DNA of 64,000 bases from Myxococcaceae bacterium (GTDB taxonomy: Bacteria > Myxococcota > Myxococcia > Myxococcales > Myxococcaceae). The stretch is from positions 40,588 to 104,587 of the forward strand of contig JBKQSS010000075.1 of the NCBI GenBank assembly GCA_052143535.1. The letters run 5' to 3'. The notes under the pieces are model-generated. The model saw nothing but the letters and a program-made list of their open reading frames with translations, did no database searches and had not been told where the DNA came from. The position numbers and the translations under genes were made by a program. Below, piece by piece: positions 3,694-48,738 of this stretch; positions within the stretch are counted from its first letter, which is position 1, and each line of letters begins with the position of its first letter.

Positions 3694-5103
3694 GTGAGCC
3701 CCTCCGAGAGTACCTCCGCCGCCATGCCCGGCCTCATCGACGAAGCGCCCAGCCTGGCTGTGCGTTTTCGCCGCTGGCGCTGGCCGCTGGTCGGGCTGGC
3801 AGTCGCTGTCGCCGCCTTTGCCGGGTGGCGCGTCCTCAAGCGGCCGCCACCCCTCAACTACGAGACGACCAGCGTCGACCGGGGTCCAGTCATTGCCCGC
3901 ATCACCGCCACCGGCGTCCTCTCGGCGCTGGTCACTGTCCAGGTGGGCGCTCAGGTGAGCGGCCAAATCACGCAGCTCCTGGTCGACTACAACTCGCCGG
4001 TGAAAAAGGGACAGCTCATTGCCCGGCTGGACCCGGTTTTTTACCAAGCGGGCGTGGACCAGGCGAGTGCCAACTTTGTGGCGGCTAAAGCCCAGGTGCA
4101 GAAGGCCGTCGTCCAGGAGTTGGACGCGAAACGCCAATACGACCGCACCGTGGCGCTCAAGCAGCGTGACCTCATGTCGCAGGCGGACCTCGACACTGCC
4201 GAGGCCACCTGGCGGGCGGCGGTTGCGCAGACCGGCACTGCCAAGGGACAGCTCGAACAGGCGCGTGCGCAGCTGAAGCAGGCCGAGGAAAACCTCCGCT
4301 ATACCAACATCAAGTCGCCCATCGACGGGACGGTCATCTCTCGCAGTGTGGACGTCGGCCAGACGGTGGCCTCGTCCCTGGCCGCGCCCACCCTCTTCAC
4401 CATCGCTGAAGACTTGCGTCGGATGCAGGTGGACACCTCGGTCGCAGAGGCAGACGTCGGCAAGCTCCACGACGCGATGGAAGCCACCTTCCTGGTGGAC
4501 GCCTACCCCAACGAGAAATTCTTGGGACGCATCCGCCAAATCCGCAATGCCCCGCAGACAGTGCAAAACGTCGTCACCTACGACGCCGTCATCGACGTGG
4601 CCAACCCCGACTTGAAGCTCAAGCCGGGAATGACGGCCAACAGCACGGTGGTGTACGCCGAGCGCCAGGACGCACTGCGGGTGCCGAACGCTGCTCTGCG
4701 CTTTCGGCCGCCTCCGGAGATGCTCGCGCTGTTGGGCGGGGCCCATCCGCACGCCGGGCCGGGGCGGGGCGGCGGAGCCGGGGGTGCGGGCGGCGCGCCG
4801 GCTCTGGGAGGAGCTGGTGGAGGGGGCAGGGGCGAAGCCGGCAGTGGCGGGGGCGGCGCTCAACGAAGTCCAACGCCACATTCACCCGCGGGTGCCTCAA
4901 CCGTCACAGCGGAAGGACCGAAGACGGTGTGGGTGCTCCGCGACGGCAAGCCCATGCCGGTGCACATCACCACTGGCGTCTCGGACGGCACGCTGAGCGA
5001 GGTCACCGACGGCGCGCTGAAGCCAGGTGACCTCGTCATCACCGGCGTGGCCGGGACACCAGCGCCAGGAACGGCGGGCGGACCGCCGCGCCGTCTCTTC
5101 TAG
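3694..5103 (+). CDS. HlyD/MacA-type periplasmic adaptor of an ABC exporter, with a Gly-rich insertion
   Basis: N-terminal TM segment, a lipoyl/barrel-sandwich motif (GQITQLLVDYNSPVKKGQLIARLD), a coiled-coil hairpin, and IKSPIDGTVISRSVDVGQTV. The MacB-type ATPase and permease genes follow. Confidence 0.85.
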   Translation: MSPSESTSAAMPGLIDEAPSLAVRFRRWRWPLVGLAVAVAAFAGWRVLKRPPPLNYETTSVDRGPVIARITATGVLSALVTVQVGAQVSGQITQLLVDYNSPVKKGQLIARLDPVFYQAGVDQASANFVAAKAQVQKAVVQELDAKRQYDRTVALKQRDLMSQADLDTAEATWRAAVAQTGTAKGQLEQARAQLKQAEENLRYTNIKSPIDGTVISRSVDVGQTVASSLAAPTLFTIAEDLRRMQVDTSVAEADVGKLHDAMEATFLVDAYPNEKFLGRIRQIRNAPQTVQNVVTYDAVIDVANPDLKLKPGMTANSTVVYAERQDALRVPNAALRFRPPPEMLALLGGAHPHAGPGRGGGAGGAGGAPALGGAGGGGRGEAGSGGGGAQRSPTPHSPAGASTVTAEGPKTVWVLRDGKPMPVHITTGVSDGTLSEVTDGALKPGDLVITGVAGTPAPGTAGGPPRRLF

Positions 5104-35868: not shown

Positions 35869-36834
35869 TTGGCTATGGCCATCAACCTCAACTCGCTCCG
35901 GCTCTTCACCGCGGTCGCGGAGCACCGGGGCTTCACCGCGGCCGGACGGCACCTGCGGGTGAGCCAGCCGGCCATCTCCAAGGCGGTGAGGCAACTGGAG
36001 GGGCAGCTCGGGACGCAGTTGCTGGTGCGGACCGCCCGCGGGGTGACGCTGACCGAGGAGGGCACGGTGCTGTTGGCCCACGCCCAAGTTCTCTTTGGCG
36101 AGGAGCGCGCCGCGGAGGAGGCCCTGGCCGAGCGGCGGGGCCTCAGCCGCGGCTCGCTGCGCCTAGGCTCGAGCATGACGGTGGCGAGCAATTTCCTCCC
36201 GCCCGTCCTCGGCGCCTTCCACACACGCCACCCGGCGATCGAGTTGACGCTGGTTGCCGCCAACACCCGTGCCGTGCTGGAGGCGCTCCTCGCCAACACG
36301 GTCGAGCTCGGCGTGGTGGAGGGCCCCGTCAGTCACCCACGGGTGGAAGTGTCCCCCTGGCTCGAGGATGAGCTGGTGGCGGTGGCGGCGCCAGGCCATC
36401 CCCTCGCCCAGGTGCGCCGCCTCAGCGCTGCGCGGCTCTTCCAGGAGCTGTTTCTCATTCGCGAAGAGGGGGCAGGAACGCGCGACGTGGTGCTCGCCGC
36501 GCTGCGAAACCGACAGGTGACGCCAGCTCGCCTGTTTGAAATCAGCGAGAACGAGGTCATCAAACAGCTCGCTGCGGCCGGGGTTGGCTTCACCATTCTC
36601 TCCCGGCTTGCGGTTCAGAAGGAGATTGCCCGGGGGGAACTGGCGACACTCTCCGTCGACGACCTCGTTCTGCGCCGAACACTCACCTGGCTCCAGGTGA
36701 AGGGCCGCCGGCCGACTGCGGCGATGACCGAGTTTCGCTCGCTTGCCACCGGGCCCTTCCGACCGTCGCTCGAGTCCCTCCCTCAAAAGAGTGTGCTAAG
36801 GACTCCCGCGCCAAGGAGGCCGAAAACTTCATGA
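35869..36834 (+). CDS. LysR family transcriptional regulator
   Basis: LNSLRLFTAVAEHRGFTAAGRHLRVSQPAISKAVRQLEGQLGTQLLVRTARGVTLTEEG. Confidence 0.9.
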   Translation: MAMAINLNSLRLFTAVAEHRGFTAAGRHLRVSQPAISKAVRQLEGQLGTQLLVRTARGVTLTEEGTVLLAHAQVLFGEERAAEEALAERRGLSRGSLRLGSSMTVASNFLPPVLGAFHTRHPAIELTLVAANTRAVLEALLANTVELGVVEGPVSHPRVEVSPWLEDELVAVAAPGHPLAQVRRLSAARLFQELFLIREEGAGTRDVVLAALRNRQVTPARLFEISENEVIKQLAAAGVGFTILSRLAVQKEIARGELATLSVDDLVLRRTLTWLQVKGRRPTAAMTEFRSLATGPFRPSLESLPQKSVLRTPAPRRPKTS

Positions 36835-37334
36835 CCATACGCGCGGGTGAGCGCCTTCCGGACGGAACCCTCACCGAGATGATTGAGGTCGAGACTCCGG
36901 GCTGCGTGGTGGGCCCGAACAGCTTCAAGGTGGCGGACCTGATGAAGGGCAAGCGGCTGATTATTTTCGGCCTGCCGGGTGCGTTCACCCCGACCTGTTC
37001 TGGGAAACACGTGCCCGGCTACGTGGGCCACTACAACGACTTCCGCGCCAAGGGTGTGGACGAGATTTGGTGCGTCGCGGTGAATGACGCCTTCGTGATG
37101 GCCGCCTGGGGCCGAGACCAAAAGGCAGACGGCAAAGTGCGCATGCTCGCCGACGGCAGCGCCACCTGGACCAAGGCGCTCGGTCTGGACCAGGACCTCA
37201 CCGCCCGTGGGATGGGCATCCGCTCGCAGCGCTACGCCATGCTCGTTGAGAACGGTGTGGTGAAGCTGCTCAATGTCGAGGCCCCCGCCATGTTCGAAGT
37301 CAGCGACGCCGACACCCTCCTGCGGGCCGTCTAG
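36831..37334 (+). CDS. peroxiredoxin (Prx5/PrxD subfamily)
   Basis: FGLPGAFTPTCS contains the peroxidatic Cys. 167 aa, with a 4-nt overlap with the LysR gene. Confidence 0.88.
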   Translation: MTIRAGERLPDGTLTEMIEVETPGCVVGPNSFKVADLMKGKRLIIFGLPGAFTPTCSGKHVPGYVGHYNDFRAKGVDEIWCVAVNDAFVMAAWGRDQKADGKVRMLADGSATWTKALGLDQDLTARGMGIRSQRYAMLVENGVVKLLNVEAPAMFEVSDADTLLRAV

Positions 37335-40198: not shown

Positions 40199-41410
40199 AT
40201 GTTCCGTCCAGCTGAAGCGCAATCCCGGGACGAATCTCCCGAGGAGTCTCTCTCCCCGACCGACCAGCCACCCAAACGCCGGGGCCGGCTTCGCCCGTGG
40301 TTGCTTGCGGTCGGAGCCTTAGTCCTCGTCGTGCTCGTGCTGGTGGGAGTCAAAGCCGGGCAAATTGTGACGATGATTAAGGTCGGCAAGTCGATGCTCC
40401 CGCCGCCCGAGTCAGTCACGGCGGTCGAAGTAAAGTCCGTCGATTGGCGACCGATGCGTTCGGCCGTCGGTACGCTGGTCGCGGTGCGCGGGGTGACGCT
40501 GGCCGCCGAGCTCACGGGCGCTGTCCGCGAGATTTCGTTTGAGAATGGCGCAACCGTGAAGCAGGGCCAACTCTTGGTTCGGCTGGACACCTCTACTGAG
40601 CAAGCGCAGCTCGAGGGCGCGCTCGCCGATGACGAGCTTGCCAAGCAGACGTTGGAGCGCGCCCGGAAGCTTCGTCGGGACCTCACCAACACCCAGGCCG
40701 ACCTCGAGGCAGCCGAAGCCCGGGCCGTCCAGGCCGCATCCAACGTTCGGAATCTCCGCGCCGTCATCGCCAAGAAAGTCATCGTCGCTCCCTTCGCTGG
40801 ACGGGTCGGGATTCGCCAGGTCGAACTGGGGCAAGTCTTGCAGCTCGGGACGGCTGTGGTTTCGCTTCAGACGGTTTCTCCCATCTACGTGGAGTTCCAG
40901 CTTCCCCAGCAGGCCCTGGCCGACGTCAAGGTGGGCCAGCGCATCTCGCTGAAGGTAGACGTCTTCCCGGGCTCGACTTGGGACGGCACCATCACCACCA
41001 TCAATCCAGAGGTGGACCCAAGCAGTCGGAACGTGCGGATGCGCGCCACCGTGGAGAATAAGGACGGGCGGCTCACCCCCGGAATGTACGCCAGCGTGGA
41101 GGTCTACTCGGACAAGCTCGAGTCGCTGCTGATTGTCCCAGCCACCAGCGTCCTCTTTGCGCCCTACGGCGACTCGGTCTACGTGCTGGAGGAGGCCAAG
41201 GGCGACGACGGGAAGACCGGCCTCGTGGCCCGGCAACGCTTCGTCCGCGTCGGGGAACGCCGTGGGGACTTCGTAGCCATCGTCTCCGGGGTCAAGGCCG
41301 GCGAGACGGTGGTGAGCAATGGAGCTTTCAAACTCCGAAATGGGGAGTCGGTTCAGGTGAAGAACGACACGGCGCCGGCGCAGCTAGCTCCAGTGCCGGT
41401 CGATCGCTGA
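40199..41410 (+). CDS. RND efflux periplasmic adaptor subunit
   Basis: It has the HlyD_D23/barrel-sandwich pattern (GAVREISFENGATVKQGQLLVRLD, VIVAPFAGRVGIRQVELGQ) and precedes the RND pump gene. Confidence 0.88.
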   Translation: MFRPAEAQSRDESPEESLSPTDQPPKRRGRLRPWLLAVGALVLVVLVLVGVKAGQIVTMIKVGKSMLPPPESVTAVEVKSVDWRPMRSAVGTLVAVRGVTLAAELTGAVREISFENGATVKQGQLLVRLDTSTEQAQLEGALADDELAKQTLERARKLRRDLTNTQADLEAAEARAVQAASNVRNLRAVIAKKVIVAPFAGRVGIRQVELGQVLQLGTAVVSLQTVSPIYVEFQLPQQALADVKVGQRISLKVDVFPGSTWDGTITTINPEVDPSSRNVRMRATVENKDGRLTPGMYASVEVYSDKLESLLIVPATSVLFAPYGDSVYVLEEAKGDDGKTGLVARQRFVRVGERRGDFVAIVSGVKAGETVVSNGAFKLRNGESVQVKNDTAPAQLAPVPVDR

Positions 41411-41423
41411 CGGGGATGAGGAC

Positions 41424-44400
41424 ATGAGATTTACCGACCTCTTCATTCGGCGACCGGTCATTGCCATCGTCGTCAACGTCATCATCGTGGTGGCCGGCGT
41501 CCAGGCCATCCGCTCACTCAACGTCCGGCAGTATCCACGGAACGACAATGCCGTGGTGACGGTGACCACGGTGTATGTCGGCGCCAGCGCTGACTTGGTG
41601 CGCGGCTTCATCACCACGCCGCTCGAGCGCGTCATCGCCGCTGCCGACGGTATTGACTACCTCGAATCGACGAGCAGCCAGGGCGTGTCCATCATCAGCG
41701 CGCGTCTGCGGCTCAATTACGACGCGACCAAGGCGCTGGCTGAAATCAGCTCCAAGGTCGACCAGGTGCGCGGGGACTTGCCGCCCGAAGCCCAGGTGCC
41801 GGTTCTCAACATCGAGTCTGCGGACAGCCAGTTTGCCTCGGCCTACCTCAGCTTCTCCTCGGAGTTCCTGAAGCAGAACGAGATTACCGACTACCTGGTC
41901 CGCGTCGTTCAGCCCCGGCTATCGGCGATTCCAGGCGTGCAGCGGGCGGACCTTCTCGGCGCCCGCACCTTCGCCATGCGCATCTGGCTCAAACCCGACC
42001 GCATGGCCGCGCTCGACGTCAGCCCGGCGAATGTTCGCCAGGCCCTCGCCTCGAACAACTATTTGGCCGCGGTGGGCCAGACCAAGGGTTCGCTGGTCCA
42101 GGTGAACCTCACCACCAACACCGACTTGCGCTCGGTGGAGGAGTTCCGCCGTCTCGTCATCCGCGAGAGCGGCGGAGCGGTGGTGCGGCTCTCCGATGTG
42201 GCCGACGTGGTGCTGGGGGCCGAGGACTACGACACCAACGTCGCCTTCAGCGGGCAGACGGCGGTCTTCATCGGCATCTGGGCGCTGCCCAACGCCAACT
42301 CCCTCGACGTCATCAAACGGGCCCGCGCCGAGTTGAAGCTCATTCAGAAGGAGTTGCCCGAGCAGATTAAGGCCTACCTCGCCTACGACGCGACCGAGTA
42401 CATCCAAAGCGCCATCGATGAAGTGGTGAAGACACTCCTCGAAACGCTGCTCATCGTCGTCATCGTCATCTTCCTGTTCCTCGGCTCCTTGCGCTCGGTG
42501 CTGGTCCCGGTGGTAGCCATCCCGGTGTCCCTCATTGGCGCGGTGTTTCTGATGCAGGTCTTCGGATTCACCATCAACCTGCTGACTCTTTTGGCCATCG
42601 TCCTTTCCGTCGGTCTGGTGGTCGATGACGCCATCGTCGTGGTGGAAAATGTCGAGCGGCACATCAGCGAGGGCATGACCTCGCTCAATGCCGCACTGGT
42701 GGGGGCGCGCGAGCTGGTGACGCCCATCATCGCGATGACCATCACTCTGGCGGCGGTGTACACCCCGATTGCCTTTCAGGGTGGCTTGACCGGGTCGCTG
42801 TTTCGCGAGTTCGCGCTGACGCTGGCCGGCGCCGTCACCATTTCGGGCGTGGTGGCGCTGACCCTATCGCCGATGATGTCGCGGTACTTGCTCCGGCCCG
42901 GGGACGACCACAAAGGGCTGGCCCGCCTCATCAACGCCGGGTTCGACAAGTTTCGCGAGCTGTACGGGAGGGGGCTGAACGTCGTCCTCGCGCGGCGCGG
43001 CATCGTCTACATGGCCTGGGGCGTCCTGAGCCTCCTGGCGGTGCTGATGTTTCAAAACTCGGTCAAGGAGCTGGCCCCCGCGGAAGACCAGGGAGTCATC
43101 TTCGGCATCGTCAACACCCCGGCCAATTCGACCCTCGACCAGATTACTGCGTCGACCAAGCTCGTCTATCAGGCGATGGAGACGATTCCAGAGACCCGGT
43201 TCACCTTTCAAATCACCTTTCCAGGCAATGGCTTTTGGGGCGATGGACTGAAGCCCTGGGGCGACCGGAAGCGAACCGCCTCGCAAATCCTCCCCGAGCT
43301 GCAGGGCAAGGTGAGCGCCATCCCCGGCATTCAGACGTTCGCCGTGGTTCCGCCGTCGCTCCCAGGTGGCGGCACCTTCCCCATTGAATTTGTGATTGCC
43401 TCCACCGCCGAGGCGTCGGAGGTGCTCGATTTCGCCAAGAAGCTGCAGGAAAAGGCAGCGACCAGCGGGAAGTTCTACTTTCCTCCCATCCTCGATGTGA
43501 AGCTCGACCAGCCGCAGTCAGAAATCATCATCGATCGCGAGAAGGTGGCTCAGCTGGGGCTGAGCTTGCAAACCGTTGGTCAGGACATCGGCGCCGCGGT
43601 GGGCGGCAACTTCGTCAACCGCTTCAGCATCGCCGGTCGGGCTTACAAGGTCATCCCGCAAGTCCTCCGGGTCGACCGGATGAATCCCGACCAGCTCAAT
43701 GACATTTACGTGACTGGCCCAGGTGGGGGACTGGTGAAGTTGTCCTCCATCGCCAAAATCCGGGACACCGTCACGCCGCGGTCGCTCAACCGCTTCCAGC
43801 AGCTGAACGCAGTGAAAATCAGCGGCGTCGCCGCGTCTCTCGAGGACGGCCTGTCCTTCCTCGAGAAAGAGGCCAAGACCATCCTTCCTCAGGGCTACGC
43901 CATCGACTACACAGGCGAGTCACGCCAGCTGAGGCAGGAGGGCAACAAATTCTTGCCGGCCTTTAGCCTCGCGGTGCTGCTCATTTTCCTGGTGCTGGCG
44001 GCCCAGTTCAACAGCTTCCGGGACCCCTTCGTCATTCTCGCTGGGTCCGTGCCGCTCGCTCTCTTCGGGTCGATGATTACCACCTTCTTCAAGATGCCCA
44101 ATCCCCAAATCCACTTCTTCACCGACGGGTGGACGACGTCCATCAACATCTATTCCCAGGTTGGGCTGGTGACGCTGGTGGGCCTCATTTCGAAGAACGG
44201 CATCCTGATTGTTCAATTCGCCAACCAGCTGCAGGAGGCGGGCAAGACGAAGGCCGAAGCGGTGAAGGAGGCGGCGATGACGCGTCTCCGGCCCATTCTC
44301 ATGACCAGCGTGGCAACGGTTGCAGGCCACTTCCCGCTCACCCTCGTCACCGGTGCCGGAGCGGCCGCTCGAAACAGCATCGGCCTGGTGCTGGTCACGG

Positions 44401-44549
44401 GCATGGCGGTGGGGACCGTCTTCACCCTCTTCTTCGTGCCAGCCATCTATCTCCTCATCGCCAAGGACCACCGGGCAGACGAAAGGCTAAGCGACGTGCA
44501 GCCTGTCGGCGGGCGCCTGGTGCCCTCCCCAGGGGCAGCCGAGCAGTAG
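41424..44549 (+). CDS. RND efflux permease (AcrB/HAE-type)
   Basis: 1041 aa. MRFTDLFIRRPVIAIVVNVIIVVAG... and ...VVDDAIVVVENVERH... Confidence 0.92.
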   Translation: MRFTDLFIRRPVIAIVVNVIIVVAGVQAIRSLNVRQYPRNDNAVVTVTTVYVGASADLVRGFITTPLERVIAAADGIDYLESTSSQGVSIISARLRLNYDATKALAEISSKVDQVRGDLPPEAQVPVLNIESADSQFASAYLSFSSEFLKQNEITDYLVRVVQPRLSAIPGVQRADLLGARTFAMRIWLKPDRMAALDVSPANVRQALASNNYLAAVGQTKGSLVQVNLTTNTDLRSVEEFRRLVIRESGGAVVRLSDVADVVLGAEDYDTNVAFSGQTAVFIGIWALPNANSLDVIKRARAELKLIQKELPEQIKAYLAYDATEYIQSAIDEVVKTLLETLLIVVIVIFLFLGSLRSVLVPVVAIPVSLIGAVFLMQVFGFTINLLTLLAIVLSVGLVVDDAIVVVENVERHISEGMTSLNAALVGARELVTPIIAMTITLAAVYTPIAFQGGLTGSLFREFALTLAGAVTISGVVALTLSPMMSRYLLRPGDDHKGLARLINAGFDKFRELYGRGLNVVLARRGIVYMAWGVLSLLAVLMFQNSVKELAPAEDQGVIFGIVNTPANSTLDQITASTKLVYQAMETIPETRFTFQITFPGNGFWGDGLKPWGDRKRTASQILPELQGKVSAIPGIQTFAVVPPSLPGGGTFPIEFVIASTAEASEVLDFAKKLQEKAATSGKFYFPPILDVKLDQPQSEIIIDREKVAQLGLSLQTVGQDIGAAVGGNFVNRFSIAGRAYKVIPQVLRVDRMNPDQLNDIYVTGPGGGLVKLSSIAKIRDTVTPRSLNRFQQLNAVKISGVAASLEDGLSFLEKEAKTILPQGYAIDYTGESRQLRQEGNKFLPAFSLAVLLIFLVLAAQFNSFRDPFVILAGSVPLALFGSMITTFFKMPNPQIHFFTDGWTTSINIYSQVGLVTLVGLISKNGILIVQFANQLQEAGKTKAEAVKEAAMTRLRPILMTSVATVAGHFPLTLVTGAGAAARNSIGLVLVTGMAVGTVFTLFFVPAIYLLIAKDHRADERLSDVQPVGGRLVPSPGAAEQ

Positions 44550-44649
44550 CCTTCGCTCAAGGCCAACCAGGTGTCACGCTTGGCCCGCCTTGTGCCCATA
44601 GCCTTGTGAGCTCGGGCCACTTTGGCCCGTCTCCTCAAGGAGTGTTTCG

Positions 44650-44769
44650 GTGAAAAACTGGAAGGCGAAAATGGCGTTTGTCGCGGCTTTGGCGCTGCCC
44701 TTGGCTGCATGGGCATCCACCGTCGGCCCCTGTTGCCCATACTGTCCGCATTGCCCGTTCTGCCCCTAG
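44650..44769 (+). CDS. secreted Cys/Pro-rich micropeptide precursor (39 codons)
   Basis: Not in the track (<60 aa). AAGGAG (44637..44642) lies 7 nt before the GTG. The product is MKNWKAKMAFVAALALPLAAWA|STVGPCCPYCPHCPFCP. It ends 33 nt before the ECF sigma gene. Confidence 0.5.
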   Translation: MKNWKAKMAFVAALALPLAAWASTVGPCCPYCPHCPFCP

Positions 44770-44802
44770 ACGGGCAGCCGCGTACCTAGCCAAATCGACC
44801 GG

Positions 44803-45333
44803 GTGGAGCGACACGAGCTTCAGGCAGCGATGGTCCGGCTCGCCAACGGCGACCGGAGCATGCTCCGGGGAGTTTTCGACGCGCTCCACCCGGTGGTTCT
44901 TCGCTGGTGCCGAAGAATGCTCCGGAACAACGCCGACGCCGAGGACGCAGCTCAGGTGGCCCTGGAGAAGCTCTTTTTCAAAGCCTCTGACTTCGAGGTG
45001 CGCGGGGATGCGCTCGGGTGGGCCCTGGCCGTTGCGACGGCCGAATGCCGGACGCTGGCTCGAAAGAAGTTTCGGCGCCGTGAGACGTCAGATGGCCCGT
45101 TGGCCGCAATGACCGTCGACAGCGAGGCGGAGCAACTCGTGGCGCGCGAACAGCTGAGAGCTGCACTGCTCGAGGTGCTGGGTACGTTGAAACCGGAGGA
45201 CGTGCAGGTGCTGCTGGCGTGGATTGAGGTTGAGCCGAGGCCGTCGGTGCCCGGGCCGACGTTTCGCAAGCGGCTCGAGCGGGCTGCCCACCGTCTCAAA
45301 GTGGCCTGGAGGGCGCGGTATGGACTCGACTGA
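44803..45333 (+). CDS. ECF-type RNA polymerase sigma factor
   Basis: Region 2 (DAEDAAQVALEKLFFKASDF...GWALAVATAECRTLARK) and region 4 (LKPEDVQVLLAW...TFRKRLERAAHRLKV). Confidence 0.8.
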   Translation: MERHELQAAMVRLANGDRSMLRGVFDALHPVVLRWCRRMLRNNADAEDAAQVALEKLFFKASDFEVRGDALGWALAVATAECRTLARKKFRRRETSDGPLAAMTVDSEAEQLVAREQLRAALLEVLGTLKPEDVQVLLAWIEVEPRPSVPGPTFRKRLERAAHRLKVAWRARYGLD

Positions 45334-45862
45334 ACTGCTTCAGCGGGTGCGCTGGAGCTACGAGTTGGGCCGGTTGCGCGTGGCCCTGCCGGGCGTCGCC
45401 TTGGCTGCTGCACTCGTCGCCTACGCCATGAGCAGGCCCCACCCGGGCTCAGCGCCGGTCTTGGGTGGCCTTCTTCTCCTGGTGACGCTTTTCGCAGGCC
45501 TGTGGCGTCGCGTGAGCGCCCGCGCGGTCCTCCCCGGCCTCGGGGCAGGTCTCGTGCCCTTTCTGGTGCCCGCTCTGGCCATGCGGGCCGGGATGGGGTG
45601 CGGGCTCCGGGACTGCACGACGCTGTGTCTGGTGAGCTGTTTGGCCGGTGGGCTTGGGGCTGGTGCGCTGATTGTCTGGAGGAGCACCGCGCTGGTGGAG
45701 GGCCGCCGGCTGTTTCTCGGAGTGTCGGGCAGCGTTGCGACGCTGGCTGGCGCGCTCGGGTGCGCTGACTTTGGCGCCATCGGACTATTGCTTCTTCTGG
45801 GAGGTTGCGCGGTCGTCCTCAGTCCCGCTTGGGCCCTGAGCCGAAGAACGGCCGCGGCTTAG
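45320..45862 (+). CDS. polytopic Cys-rich membrane protein, putative cognate anti-sigma factor
   Basis: ATG 45320 overlaps the end of the sigma gene by 14 nt. About 5 TM segments, with intramembrane Cys residues (GMGCGLRDCTTLCLVSCLAGG, LGCADFG, LLGGCAVV). Confidence 0.55.
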   Translation: MDSTELLQRVRWSYELGRLRVALPGVALAAALVAYAMSRPHPGSAPVLGGLLLLVTLFAGLWRRVSARAVLPGLGAGLVPFLVPALAMRAGMGCGLRDCTTLCLVSCLAGGLGAGALIVWRSTALVEGRRLFLGVSGSVATLAGALGCADFGAIGLLLLLGGCAVVLSPAWALSRRTAAA

Positions 45863-45897: not shown

Positions 45898-46854
45898 TTA
45901 GTCGTCGTAACGGATGTCGCCGGCTCCCTCGACGTCATAGCCGGCGATGGCCCCCACCTCGGAGCGAAAGGCTGAGCCCTGCGCCACCTCGCACACCCGG
46001 ATGACCCGGGCGTCACCGAGGTCGCGTGCCTTGACAATCAGGCCGTAGGACTCGGTGGCGAGGTGATGAAAGACGAGGCCGCTGCGCGTCCCCCACGCCC
46101 TCGTCGCCAGGCCCACCTCGGCACGACCAGAGATGACCGCCAGGACGACCTCGAGGTGCGAGGAGAGCAGCAGGGCGCCCCGGTGGATGCGTTCCGGGTC
46201 GAGCATTGCAGTGCGAAGTGCTTCATCCAGGTGAGAGCGGATGCCGGCCGAGGGAGGCCGCGACGCCAGACTGCGAGTCGCGAGGTCCTCTATGCGTCCC
46301 TTCGCTCCGGGCTTGGTCAGCAGGCCAATCTCACGGTTGACGAGGTGGATTCTCGCCACTCGCTCGCCGTCCAGATGAGTCGGAAAGCCGCCGGCGTGGG
46401 CTCCAGCGGCGAGGACTGCGCCGCGGCCCAGCAAACCCAAGCCGGACTCCCGGTCGGCTTGGACGAAGCCGAGGAACGGCGGCCCCCGCTCCGAGCTGAG
46501 CCGCAGCAATGTCATCAGTGCCACGTCGCCGTTGCCGGCGACCAGCGCGGGGGCGGCGCCCGCTGCGAGCGGACGCGGCGCTTGGCCGTCGGCGAGCGGC
46601 GCCGCGCCACCGGACCAGACGAGCACGTCCCGCTGGTCAAACCGCCATTCGGAGCCCACCCGCCGAGCAGGAAGGCCTTTCCGCAATAGCCGGTAGACGT
46701 GCTTGGGGTGGACCCGCAGCAGCTCGGCGACTTCCGCCGTCGTCAACAGCGCCGAGGCGGCCGCTGGGCTCTCTCCTTGGGGGTGGGTTGGTGCCACCGG
46801 GTGGGCCCGAGGCCCAGTCCGCAGTCGGCCTCCCTTTAAGGAACTAGAAGACAC
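45898..46854 (-). CDS. HTH (excisionase/MerR-like) + periplasmic-binding-protein-like domain regulator (TunR/ModE-like oxyanion-responsive type)
   Basis: LLTTAEVAELLRVHPKHVYRLLRKGLPARRVGSEWRF is an HTH_17-like motif, followed by a ~230-aa PBP-like domain. The true start is uncertain because the first codons have low GC3. Confidence 0.6.
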   Translation of the reverse strand: MSSSSLKGGRLRTGPRAHPVAPTHPQGESPAAASALLTTAEVAELLRVHPKHVYRLLRKGLPARRVGSEWRFDQRDVLVWSGGAAPLADGQAPRPLAAGAAPALVAGNGDVALMTLLRLSSERGPPFLGFVQADRESGLGLLGRGAVLAAGAHAGGFPTHLDGERVARIHLVNREIGLLTKPGAKGRIEDLATRSLASRPPSAGIRSHLDEALRTAMLDPERIHRGALLLSSHLEVVLAVISGRAEVGLATRAWGTRSGLVFHHLATESYGLIVKARDLGDARVIRVCEVAQGSAFRSEVGAIAGYDVEGAGDIRYDD

Positions 46855-48011: not shown

Positions 48012-48215
48012 ATGCAGCTCAGCGCACGCAACCAGCTCAAGGGCAAGGTGAAATCCGTGAAGACCGACGGGTTGACGGCCGAGGTCACCGTGGAAGTCGG
48101 GGGCAATGAGTTGGTCTCGACCATCACCAAGGCCTCTGCGGACCACCTCGGTCTCAAAGCTGGGGACACGGTGACGGTCTTCATCAAAGCCAGCGAGGTG
48201 CTGGTTGGGAAGTAG
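48012..48215 (+). CDS. mop: TOBE/Mop molybdate-binding (molbindin) protein
   Basis: MQLSARNQLKGKVKSVKTDGLTAEVTVEVGGNELVSTITKASADHLGLKAGDTVTVFIKASEVLV is the canonical single TOBE domain. Confidence 0.88.
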   Translation: MQLSARNQLKGKVKSVKTDGLTAEVTVEVGGNELVSTITKASADHLGLKAGDTVTVFIKASEVLVGK

Positions 48216-48738
48216 GAAGCACGGCGTCCCGCGGGCCCTGCTGCTGGTCCTCGGGCTAGTGCCCTGCCTCACGGTTGCGCTCGAAGCAGCGCCCAAGCCC
48301 TCGGTGCGTGTCGACGGGTCCCTTCCCCAGTCCGGCACTCTCGGACAGAGCGAACTGGAGAAACTCGGTGCCTCGACGATGACGTGGACCAGCCATGGGG
48401 AGACCCATCAGGTGAAGGGCGTCCGCGTGGACAAGGTGCTAACTCACTTCGGCTTCACCCCAGGACCGATGGGGAAAGACGTCCCGGTCGCCCAGAAGGT
48501 GAAGGGCTTCCGCCAGGTACTGGTGGCCACTGCCCGGGATGGCTTCCAGGCAGTCTTCAGCTGCGCCGAAGTGACTGAGGGGATGGGCCCGACGGTGGCT
48601 CTGGTTGTCTGGGAAGTCGACGGTAAGGTTCTCGGGCCCGACGTCGGACCTCTGCGTATGGTGGTGGTGACTGACGCCTTGCCCGCCAGGTCTCTGCGCC
48701 AACTGGAAACTCTCCACGTCGGCGACGGCCCGGGGTGA
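48205..48738 (+). CDS. small secreted molybdopterin-oxidoreductase-like domain protein
   Basis: It has a signal peptide and resembles short Oxidored_molyb-like proteins (…VKGVRVDKVL…DGFQAVFSCAEV…GPLRMVV..D). TTG start overlaps mop. Confidence 0.45.
   Translation: MGSRKHGVPRALLLVLGLVPCLTVALEAAPKPSVRVDGSLPQSGTLGQSELEKLGASTMTWTSHGETHQVKGVRVDKVLTHFGFTPGPMGKDVPVAQKVKGFRQVLVATARDGFQAVFSCAEVTEGMGPTVALVVWEVDGKVLGPDVGPLRMVVVTDALPARSLRQLETLHVGDGPG

Follow-up and report, generated by a model that had tools for sequence, protein, structure and literature searches.

An unannotated Cys/Pro peptide gene preceding an ECF sigma factor gene and a putative polytopic anti-sigma factor gene in Myxococcaceae

We identified a 39-codon gene for a predicted exported peptide rich in cysteine and proline in a 64-kb stretch of DNA from a Myxococcaceae metagenome-assembled genome (MAG). 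The whole stretch is called the window below, and coordinates are window positions unless another locus is named. The gene (44650..44769, + strand) directly precedes the genes for an extracytoplasmic function (ECF) sigma factor and a putative polytopic anti-sigma factor. We favor, with moderate confidence in all of its parts taken together, a reading in which this open reading frame (ORF), a genuine gene, stands as first cistron at the head of a self-regulated operon of three genes, and in which the operon is a stress module for thiophilic metals, copper in particular, that has a periplasmic thiolate buffer peptide as its output.

The peptide gene and its family

The peptide gene begins with a GTG at 44650 and ends with a TAG at 44767-44769, and its product is MKNWKAKMAFVAALALPLAAWASTVGPCCPYCPHCPFCP. 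A Shine-Dalgarno (SD) sequence read directly from the DNA, AAGGAG (44637..44642, +), lies 7 nucleotides (nt) 5' of the start codon, and the orthologs described below have GGAG-type sites at the matching position. Codons 1-22 (44650-44715, +) encode a predicted Sec-type signal with an n-region carrying K2, K5 and K7, an h-region, and the residues AWA followed by S. Cleavage at this point, predicted by the -3/-1 rule only, would leave codons 23-39 (44716-44766, +) as the mature peptide STVGPCCPYCPHCPFCP. This 17-mer has five Cys, five Pro, one His and no Met, and its potential ligands form overlapping CPxC units (C-x2-C-x2-C-x2-C) together with a CC pair and the single His. A first-pass annotation of the window, made from the sequence alone, had given the same SD, start codon and stop, and the Sec signal that it described, with AWA before S, is likewise predicted here by the n/h/c-region rule alone. 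Its counts of Pro and His hold, but it gave the mature peptide six Cys where there are five.

The window contains 733 ORFs of at least 25 amino acids (aa), and no other has at least four Cys in its last 14 residues, nor does any other have at least three CP dipeptides there. The exact 39-aa protein is missing from a collection of 15 billion predicted proteins that holds both the sigma factor and the membrane protein. The ORF is therefore unannotated in this MAG, as the first-pass annotation, which called it untracked, had supposed.

Homologs of the membrane protein were collected and aligned (alignment A1, 50 homologs), and 90 related loci were fetched from genomes and metagenomes. The peptide gene has seven orthologs (group A: L001, L002, L003, L029, L030, L032 and L102), all at the same position and again 33 nt ahead of the sigma gene; in this close clade the membrane protein is 72-85% identical to that of the window. 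The first-pass annotation had proposed to look for conservation of the ORF at orthologous loci, and the ORF is found there with conserved synteny and in-frame variation. The frame is kept, all indels are of whole codons and amount to the gain or loss of CPx units, and Cys codons swap between TGC and TGT. Between L003 and L032, the peptide genes differ by seven synonymous and no non-synonymous codon changes. The mean ratio of non-synonymous to synonymous substitution rates (dN/dS, Nei-Gojobori) is 0.21 for the peptide gene, 0.18 for the sigma gene and 0.15 for the membrane gene. We conclude from these comparisons that the peptide gene is under protein-level selection. One ortholog (P0064, at 3335-3451 in L002) has the tail ACLFPHCPFCP with three Cys only, two codons being missing and two changed. 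Since records of NCBI, Logan and ENA origin all have this sequence, the short tail is probably not a sequencing error.

A profile of the group A peptides searched against 5.8 billion proteins matched 33 small proteins, and HMMER, run exhaustively over 1.84 billion cluster representatives (clusters at 50% identity; E <= 1e-3), matched 54 divergent clusters, nearly all of 35-72 aa. None of these clusters belongs to a Pfam or NCBIfam family. They have a common build, in which an N-terminus rich in K/R is followed by a hydrophobic core, a cleavage site of the AxA type and a tail of 12-25 residues rich in Cys and Pro, in some cases with His, such as CCPxCPHCPFCP, CPSGCPCCPCPGC, DCPIDHCPFCPHAK, CCPGCPFCPSHLHA and CPCSDCPCSDCPCG. 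The carriers are MAGs labelled Myxococcaceae and Acidobacteria as well as many unassigned metagenome contigs. The number of Cys among peptide orthologs ranges from 3 to 6 and takes both odd and even values, which points to bulk chemistry rather than a fixed fold; the spacing varies freely even between close orthologs. The peptide matches no Pfam or NCBIfam family, and a full-text literature search for CPFCP, CPHCP, CPYCP, HCPFC and CPxCP returned no relevant paper. The first-pass annotation knew of no described family for a set of genes of this kind. That stands for the peptide and for the membrane protein, neither of which has a Pfam or NCBIfam match, but analogous triads have been published (PMC11626156, PMC4436054).

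We rejected a lipoprotein reading of the peptide, as there is no lipobox (the residue at -1 is P in the window, and other groups have E/S or D there) and the signal peptidase I AxA sites are conserved. Cys-rich tails that came out of a six-frame screen of a distant clade (PCPPCRPCCPCP) were discarded as minus-strand artefacts rather than peptides: PCPPCRPCCPCP is an antisense frame at the start of a multicopper oxidase gene, in the part that encodes the signal peptide and Met/Gly-rich N-terminus.

The ORF might have no function as a protein, being either a chance ORF or a Cys-codon attenuator, that is, an upstream ORF controlling the sigma gene. It is very short, it lacks an annotation, a regulator gene follows it immediately, and its run of Cys codons is like those of amino-acid attenuators. 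However, the dN/dS of 0.21, the whole-codon indels and the signal-peptide architecture kept across 54 divergent clusters all speak for a protein product. The gap between the peptide and sigma genes (33 nt in the window and 1-58 nt in other lineages) contains no terminator or alternative hairpins, and a promoter/terminator scan of the 33 nt found neither a sigma-70-like promoter nor a terminator, for which so short a gap also lacks space. Across the whole window (1-64000), no match to an Rfam family attains the gathering score, and the copies in one peptide group (group C, see below) are not upstream of a regulator. Attenuators have a terminator/antiterminator between leader and gene and no export signal; no such structure was found here, and the signal peptide is conserved. 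We regard an ORF without a protein function as barely credible.

The regulator pair and the promoter-like element

The sigma gene (44803..45333, +; 176 aa; stop at 45331-45333; annotated as MGO8970749.1) starts with a GTG 33 nt after the peptide stop. It overlaps by 14 nt the membrane protein gene (45320..45862, +; 180 aa; MGO8970750.1, 'hypothetical'), the ATG of which is at 45320. Both the 33-nt distance and the overlap at the 3' end had been described in the first-pass annotation. The sigma factor matches Pfam Sigma70_r2 (E = 9e-11) and NCBIfam sigma70-ECF (E = 4e-10; 39.5 bits, slightly below the model cutoff of 42.9). Region 4 has no Pfam match, the C-terminus FRKRLERAxxRL is conserved, and the closest solved structures are SigW and SigK, both weakly similar. 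The Sigma70_r2 match, the small size and the co-encoded putative anti-sigma factor are those of an ECF sigma factor.

We retrieved the genomic context of eleven peptide types. Seven have a triad consisting of the peptide gene, an ECF sigma gene and an overlapping gene for a membrane protein of ~180 aa, namely group A, group B (L011, L098/99), P0087, P0090 (L100/101), P0122 (L103/104), P0131 (L106, a 12.5-Mb genome record) and P0117 (L108/109). A search for Cys-Pro peptide genes beside ECF sigma genes had been recommended in the first-pass annotation, and the triad is what it yields. In all related loci examined the sigma gene is overlapped or directly trailed by the membrane gene. Two further types (P0126 in L105 and P0142 in L107) have a divergent P1B-ATPase gene followed by genes for a CopZ-like HMA protein, the peptide and the sigma factor, where the contig ends. 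In the remaining two, group C and P0104, no sigma gene adjoins the peptide gene. Group C peptides are not upstream of any regulator, and their occurrence without a sigma gene argues for an independent function of the peptide. Apart from the regulators, nothing but the peptide is encoded in cis in at least four lineages (the window, L098/099, L108/109 and the P0087 contig). Neighbors other than the sigma and anti-sigma genes are not conserved between lineages. As judged from gene order in these contigs, the triad is conserved across divergent peptides.

An alignment of the upstream DNA gave a conserved motif, GTCAC[GA]-N13-G[CT]GCC[CT]A[TG]A (GTCACG-N13-GYGCCYAKA), that can also be read as a -35 element GTCACG, a 16-nt spacer and a -10 element CCCA/CCTA. 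The motif precedes the first operon gene in ~45 related loci from three clades, and in every triad type listed above it directly precedes the peptide gene. The window copy (GTCACG-N13-GTGCCCATA, 44573..44600, +), which reads GTCACGCTTGGCCCGCCTTGTGCCCATA and lies 49 nt before the peptide start codon, is unique in the 64 kb even with two mismatches allowed; the chance expectation in the window is 0.07 for a simpler pattern. In L107 the motif falls between the HMA gene and the peptide gene, so the peptide is always the first cistron after the promoter. The position of this ECF-type promoter-like element is conserved across the aligned loci. We infer that the genes for the peptide, the sigma factor and the membrane protein form one autoregulated operon, and the promoter would likewise depend on the sigma factor that it serves to express. 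At the HMA-peptide junctions of L105 and L107 the -10 part ends 6-9 nt before the peptide ATG, so the transcript there would be leaderless or nearly so. By contrast, a leader of ~40 nt containing the AAGGAG is expected for the window transcript.

A second copy of the motif is found on the opposite strand in L103 (4370-4397, -). It precedes a separate gene (4215-4352, -), convergent on the sigma operon, for a small secreted His/Cys/Met peptide of 45 aa, MSRWAKWTAVALLVALPTIGFA-VTRYRAHHPSCSMKSGCPHARHR, in which VTRYRAHHPSCSMKSGCPHARHR is the tail. Since this promoter copy would drive such a peptide, small exported Cys/His peptides appear to be outputs of the sigma factor.

Three loci of this family are decayed (190-838 in L095, 177-2349 in L096, and L097). 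They keep the peptide (tail CPICHCGGC) and the promoter, but deletions have removed the sigma gene and ~50 codons from the start of the membrane gene. In L096 the remnant of the membrane gene is fused in frame to a Lactamase_B protein.

The membrane protein belongs to a family with 563 matches at E <= 10, and the best 120 of these (E < 1e-57, ~180-187 aa) are all 'hypothetical' and without a Pfam domain. Within alignment A1, M1, Y14, E15 and R18 are invariant in the N-terminal segment. C94, C107 and C148 are also invariant, with C99 and C103 nearly so, which gives the pattern G-C-G-x3-C-x3-C-x3-C plus G-C; C94 is encoded at 45599-45601 and C148 at 45761-45763 (+). From hydropathy and the positive-inside rule, applied by eye, the protein more likely has six transmembrane (TM) segments with both the N- and C-terminus inside. 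In this predicted topology all five conserved Cys fall on the periplasmic side, distributed over loop 3-4, the outer half of TM4 and the turn of TM5/6. An AlphaFold model (pLDDT 82.6) is all-helical with five long helices, and the last of these (129-174) is long enough for two spans. The first-pass annotation was right to see a polytopic protein bearing Cys, but its ~5 TM segments and intramembrane Cys give way to a more likely six segments and conserved Cys at the periplasmic face. By analogy with known ECF pairs, we regard the protein as a putative anti-sigma factor with a conserved N-terminus (Y14, E15, R18) that is predicted to be cytoplasmic.

No Pfam match, including DUF1109 at E <= 1, and no NCBIfam match was found for the window protein, and 50 family members gave only noise and no DUF1109/NrsF match at E <= 10, at the sensitivity of HMMER. 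A Foldseek search of the AlphaFold model against the PDB returned nothing below E = 0.1, with TM-scores <= 0.33, and a profile search of PDB sequences gave 0 matches. Because no profile match was found in the 50 members and the promoter differs in sequence from that of SigF, we do not file the protein as a member of DUF1109.

Copper context and possible roles of the peptide

In a neighbor-joining tree the membrane proteins linked to peptides (group A and L011) form one clade, and the other clade contains the rest, mostly from MAGs labelled Polyangiaceae, Polyangiales and Myxococcales. The first gene of the sister-clade operon is either the sigma gene itself or one for a secreted protein of 142 aa. 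Downstream are genes for multicopper oxidases with all three Cu-oxidase Pfam domains, outer-membrane factors (OEP), CusB-type adaptors with a heavy-metal-binding domain (HMBD), resistance-nodulation-division (RND) pumps, a 152-aa secreted CCxxC protein with no Pfam match, and a cytochrome-c-like His-rich protein. The pumps are of the CusCBA type. A second copy of the promoter is found immediately before the oxidase operon in L005, L006, L008, L010, L048-050 and L054, and the peptide loci L105, L107 and L108 adjoin genes for CopZ-like HMA proteins and P1B ATPases. These promoter copies and neighbors tie the sigma/membrane protein family to copper or soft-metal homeostasis. The association of the sigma/anti-sigma family with copper genes is evident from gene neighborhoods, and the metal or thiol role suggested in the first-pass annotation is backed by this context in relatives.

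The 142-aa secreted protein of the Polyangia-type clade is encoded at 2999-3427 in L026, at 328-756 in L048 and in ~30 other loci, as the first gene after the same promoter and thus in the slot of the peptide. It has conserved QDC...PDC cysteines and belongs to no Pfam family. At many sister-clade loci, a single-TM ORF of ~51 aa with an N-terminal CPDC (MSCPDCRPNGRxRLLWL…), also without a Pfam family, directly precedes and slightly overlaps the multicopper oxidase gene (4606-4761 in L012, 5763-5924 in L005 and about 4600-4760 in L026).

The mechanism that we propose draws on a predicted sigma dependence of the promoter, anti-sigma activity and topology of the membrane protein, and secretion and metal binding of the peptide. 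At rest, the membrane protein would hold the sigma factor via its short conserved cytoplasmic N-terminus. Its five Cys at the periplasmic face would detect a thiophilic metal, most likely Cu(I)/Cu(II); Ag, Cd and Hg are possible stimuli and thiol-reactive oxidants are less likely ones. The released sigma factor would then transcribe its own operon from GTCACG-N13-GYGCCYAKA. The peptide, translated from its strong SD, would be exported by the Sec pathway and cleaved after AWA. The resulting 17-mer would act as a soluble periplasmic thiolate buffer that binds metal via CPxC/CPH, protects envelope thiols and damps the signal in a negative feedback. Three roles had been offered in the first-pass annotation (a ligand of the anti-sigma factor, a metallothionein-like chelator and a disulfide-rich signaling peptide), and a chelator or buffer induced by the sigma factor is the one favored here, the anti-sigma ligand being less so.

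The peptide could alternatively be a periplasmic co-sensor that docks, by way of a bridging metal or a mixed disulfide, on the Cys cluster of the anti-sigma factor and controls the release of the sigma factor, as CnrX acts for CnrY and RseB for RseA. It is predicted to be co-transcribed with the sigma and anti-sigma genes in at least seven lineages, the peptide and the anti-sigma factor both have Cys predicted to be periplasmic, and the Polyangia-type clade has another secreted Cys-containing protein, that of 142 aa, in the same first slot. However, many members have no first gene at all, the promoter being directly before the sigma gene in L010, L012, L018, L022, L036, L061 and L065. The number and spacing of the peptide Cys vary freely, close orthologs included, group C peptides occur without a sigma gene, and in L103 the same promoter also stands before the gene for another, unlinked peptide. 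Together with the status of the peptide as sole non-regulatory product in cis, these observations argue for an effector rather than a sensor. Moreover, the SD of the peptide gene is strong and that of the sigma gene weak, which would suggest an excess of peptide and not a 1:1 stoichiometry. We consider a co-sensor rather unlikely.

It is also doubtful that the peptide, beyond buffering metal, is the diffusible half of a two-part extracytoplasmic thiol switch, pairing with the five-Cys cluster of the anti-sigma factor via a bridging metal or a mixed disulfide to set sigma activity. The same applies to a variant in which the 17-mer, unmodified, would be released from the cell and serve as a ribosomal chalkophore made without enzymes. 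If true, the pairing in such a thiol switch would constitute a peptide-ligand-gated ECF pathway without described precedent.

A sacrificial redox scavenger resembling MrpX would have an oxidative stimulus instead of a metal; its thiols would be oxidized by oxidants or electrophiles of the periplasm (HOCl, reactive oxygen species or Cu-catalyzed oxidation) and might be re-reduced by a periplasmic reductase dedicated to it. The CPxC units match thiol-disulfide active-site motifs, such as CPHC in DsbA and CPYC in glutaredoxin. In the window, a small secreted Oxidored_molyb-like protein of 177 aa (48205-48738, +; 23.0 bits, below the 24-bit Pfam cutoff) is encoded 3.4 kb downstream. It is 33% identical (E = 3e-13) to a 185-aa protein encoded beside the unrelated group C peptides (517-1074, -, in L091), and in L003 and L032 its gene is only ~450 nt after the membrane gene. 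This protein could be a YedY-like partner, as with MrpX, or its presence could be a coincidence. MrpX, YedY and SigF-NrsF provide a precedent for redox scavenging (PMC4436054). However, the contexts of the sigma/anti-sigma genes are overwhelmingly those of copper and heavy metals (multicopper oxidases, CusB-HMBD, HMA, P1B ATPases) and not of Msr, Prx or catalase. In addition, the molybdoenzyme-like match is below the cutoff and is not found in the group B, L100, L103, L106 and L108 loci. A role as a redox scavenger appears distinctly unlikely.

We also considered a precursor of a modified or secreted natural product acting outside the cell, whether a ribosomally made peptide that is modified after translation, a chalkophore-like metallophore, a signal or an antimicrobial. 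A Sec signal followed by a short Cys-rich core is also found in bufferin/oxazolin precursors (PMC11626156), and the 17-mer is small enough to exit the periplasm. However, the ORFs scanned in the window (34.5-54.2 kb) include no gene for an MNIO/DUF692, DUF2063 or radical-SAM protein, for a protease or for a dedicated exporter, and none of these maturation or export genes was seen in the Pfam-annotated gene tables of related peptide loci. The neighbors beyond the sigma/anti-sigma pair also differ between lineages. A natural product precursor is therefore highly improbable.

Several points weigh against a metal buffer as the output of the operon. The evidence consists of sequences, which come from MAGs and metagenomes except for the genome record CP150352.1, which carries the P0131 triad. 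The clade of the window itself has no copper gene inside the conserved unit, and the link to copper is made through homology of the regulator pair to sister clades and through three distant peptide loci. Cys in the periplasm are normally oxidized by DsbA, so an unmodified thiol peptide may be disulfide-locked, and the known periplasmic Cu binders mostly use Met and His. Bufferins escape disulfide locking, their Cys being converted to thiooxazoles. The 17-mer may also leak through porins. Finally, co-transcription with the sigma and anti-sigma genes is equally expected of a co-regulator like CnrX or RseB.

Known systems, neighboring genes and implications

Among the closest known systems are SigF-NrsF (ECF16) with the bufferins BufA1/BufA2 in Caulobacter, and the gig operons of Cupriavidus (PMC3511200, PMC11626156, PMC12452194). 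NrsF requires two periplasmic Cys to hold SigF (PMC3511200), and the Sec-exported Cys peptides under SigF/NrsF control act as copper buffers (PMC11626156); a Met-rich scavenger peptide is under SigF/NrsF control as well (PMC4436054). Similarly, the ECF sigma gene described here overlaps the gene for a putative six-TM anti-sigma factor with conserved Cys predicted to face the periplasm, although these are five in number compared with the two in NrsF (PMC3511200). The predicted output is again a Sec-exported, Cys-bearing small product for which copper buffering is proposed. The promoters are similar in architecture but distinct in sequence, with GTAACC-N16-CGAA for SigF and GTCACG-N16-CCTA/CCCA here. 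Unlike NrsF and the bufferins, the membrane protein has no DUF1109/NrsF match and the peptide no DUF2282 match. Furthermore, no MNIO (DUF692) or DUF2063 maturation genes are adjacent (window ORFs from 34.5 to 54.2 kb and related-locus gene tables), the mature part has 17 residues (12-25 in the family) where bufferins are folded proteins of 60-70 residues, and the peptide gene is the first cistron of the sigma operon instead of forming a separate operon.

In Azospira suillum, SigF-NrsF occurs with MrpX and YedY1Z1 (PMC4436054). Like MrpX, the peptide is a small signal-bearing product extremely rich in one oxidizable or soft-ligand residue and the likely main output of an adjacent ECF/polytopic anti-sigma pair, and a small secreted Oxidored_molyb-like protein is encoded nearby in two peptide lineages. 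However, the peptide is Cys/Pro-rich and not Met-rich, and its stimulus is probably a metal rather than hypochlorite. Unlike YedY of the MrpX system, the Oxidored_molyb-like protein is half-length, below threshold, 3.4 kb away and missing from most other peptide lineages.

CarR of Myxococcus xanthus is a six-TM DUF1109 anti-sigma factor (PMC8156234) that is inactivated by copper via an unknown, CarF-independent route (PMC8156234, PMC6851896). The first-pass annotation had likened the locus to CarQ-CarR, and the comparison is apt for the layout and the predicted topology: both have a myxobacterial ECF sigma factor and a translationally coupled anti-sigma factor of six TM segments, predicted in our case. 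However, CarR is classed as DUF1109 and the window protein is not detected as such. In carQRS the pair is followed by CarS, a cytoplasmic antirepressor, no secreted peptide precedes it, and the output is carotenogenesis.

CnrYXH of Cupriavidus metallidurans is a three-gene autoregulated operon that combines an extracytoplasmic metal-binding component, a membrane anti-sigma factor and an ECF sigma factor (PMC6851896). The operon described here would have the same three parts, with autoregulation and metal binding proposed. Unlike the polytopic protein encoded here, CnrY is single-pass, CnrYXH is specific for Ni/Co, and no homology was detected in the family scans. CnrX is a membrane-anchored His/Glu/Met sensor, whereas the peptide would have no anchor after its predicted cleavage. 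The local ligands of the peptide, Cys-Pro-Cys/His and C-x2-C, resemble the CPC/CPH metal site of CPx-type P1B ATPases and the CxxC sites of MerP, CopZ and Atx1. Those sites are in folded domains or TM helices, whereas here the motif is iterated in a free oligopeptide that is predicted to be exported. The logic of a polytopic Cys anti-sigma factor, an ECF sigma factor and a residue-biased periplasmic peptide is shared with known systems. What sets the present case apart is its peptide family, its putative anti-sigma family and its promoter, which are all unannotated.

An RND adaptor gene (40199-41410) and an RND permease gene (41424-44549) lie directly upstream of the unit, as the first-pass annotation had stated. 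However, the RND pair is not part of the conserved unit. We rejected a functional linkage because the synteny is found in close relatives only and no promoter motif precedes the pair, which is assigned by NCBIfam to the multidrug (HAE1) type and not to CusA/CzcA. About 7 kb upstream, a LysR-type regulator gene is followed by one for a Redoxin/AhpC-TSA protein (35869-37334, +); this thiol-peroxidase pair has no relation to the conserved unit. Converging on the operon is a gene (45898-46854, -) that encodes a protein with HTH_17 and PBP_like domains, with a weak match to the NCBIfam 'molybdopterin biosynthesis protein' model (74 bits, far under the 534-bit cutoff). In L003 and L032 the membrane gene is followed by a 90-aa ORF (4650-4922, +, in L003), which we take to resemble a Mop/TOBE molybdate-binding protein. 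The surroundings of the operon may thus share a link to molybdate.

No established principle is overturned by these findings. Genes of ~40 codons such as this one are systematically missed in MAG annotation. The peptides add an unannotated family of at least 54 divergent clusters of exported Cys/Pro peptides to the known periplasmic defenses against soft metals, with their role as proposed here. The membrane proteins make up a new putative family of polytopic anti-sigma factors with several hundred members, those listed all being 'hypothetical', and the new ECF promoter motif can be used to read regulons directly from genomes. A chemical question is also raised, namely how a free thiol peptide stays functional in an oxidizing periplasm. 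The findings suggest that the logic of bufferins and MrpX is wider than the SigF-NrsF family, and here it would work without a maturation enzyme. They also bear on the unexplained inactivation of CarR-type anti-sigma factors by copper and on metal sensing by anti-sigma factors like CarR and NrsF.

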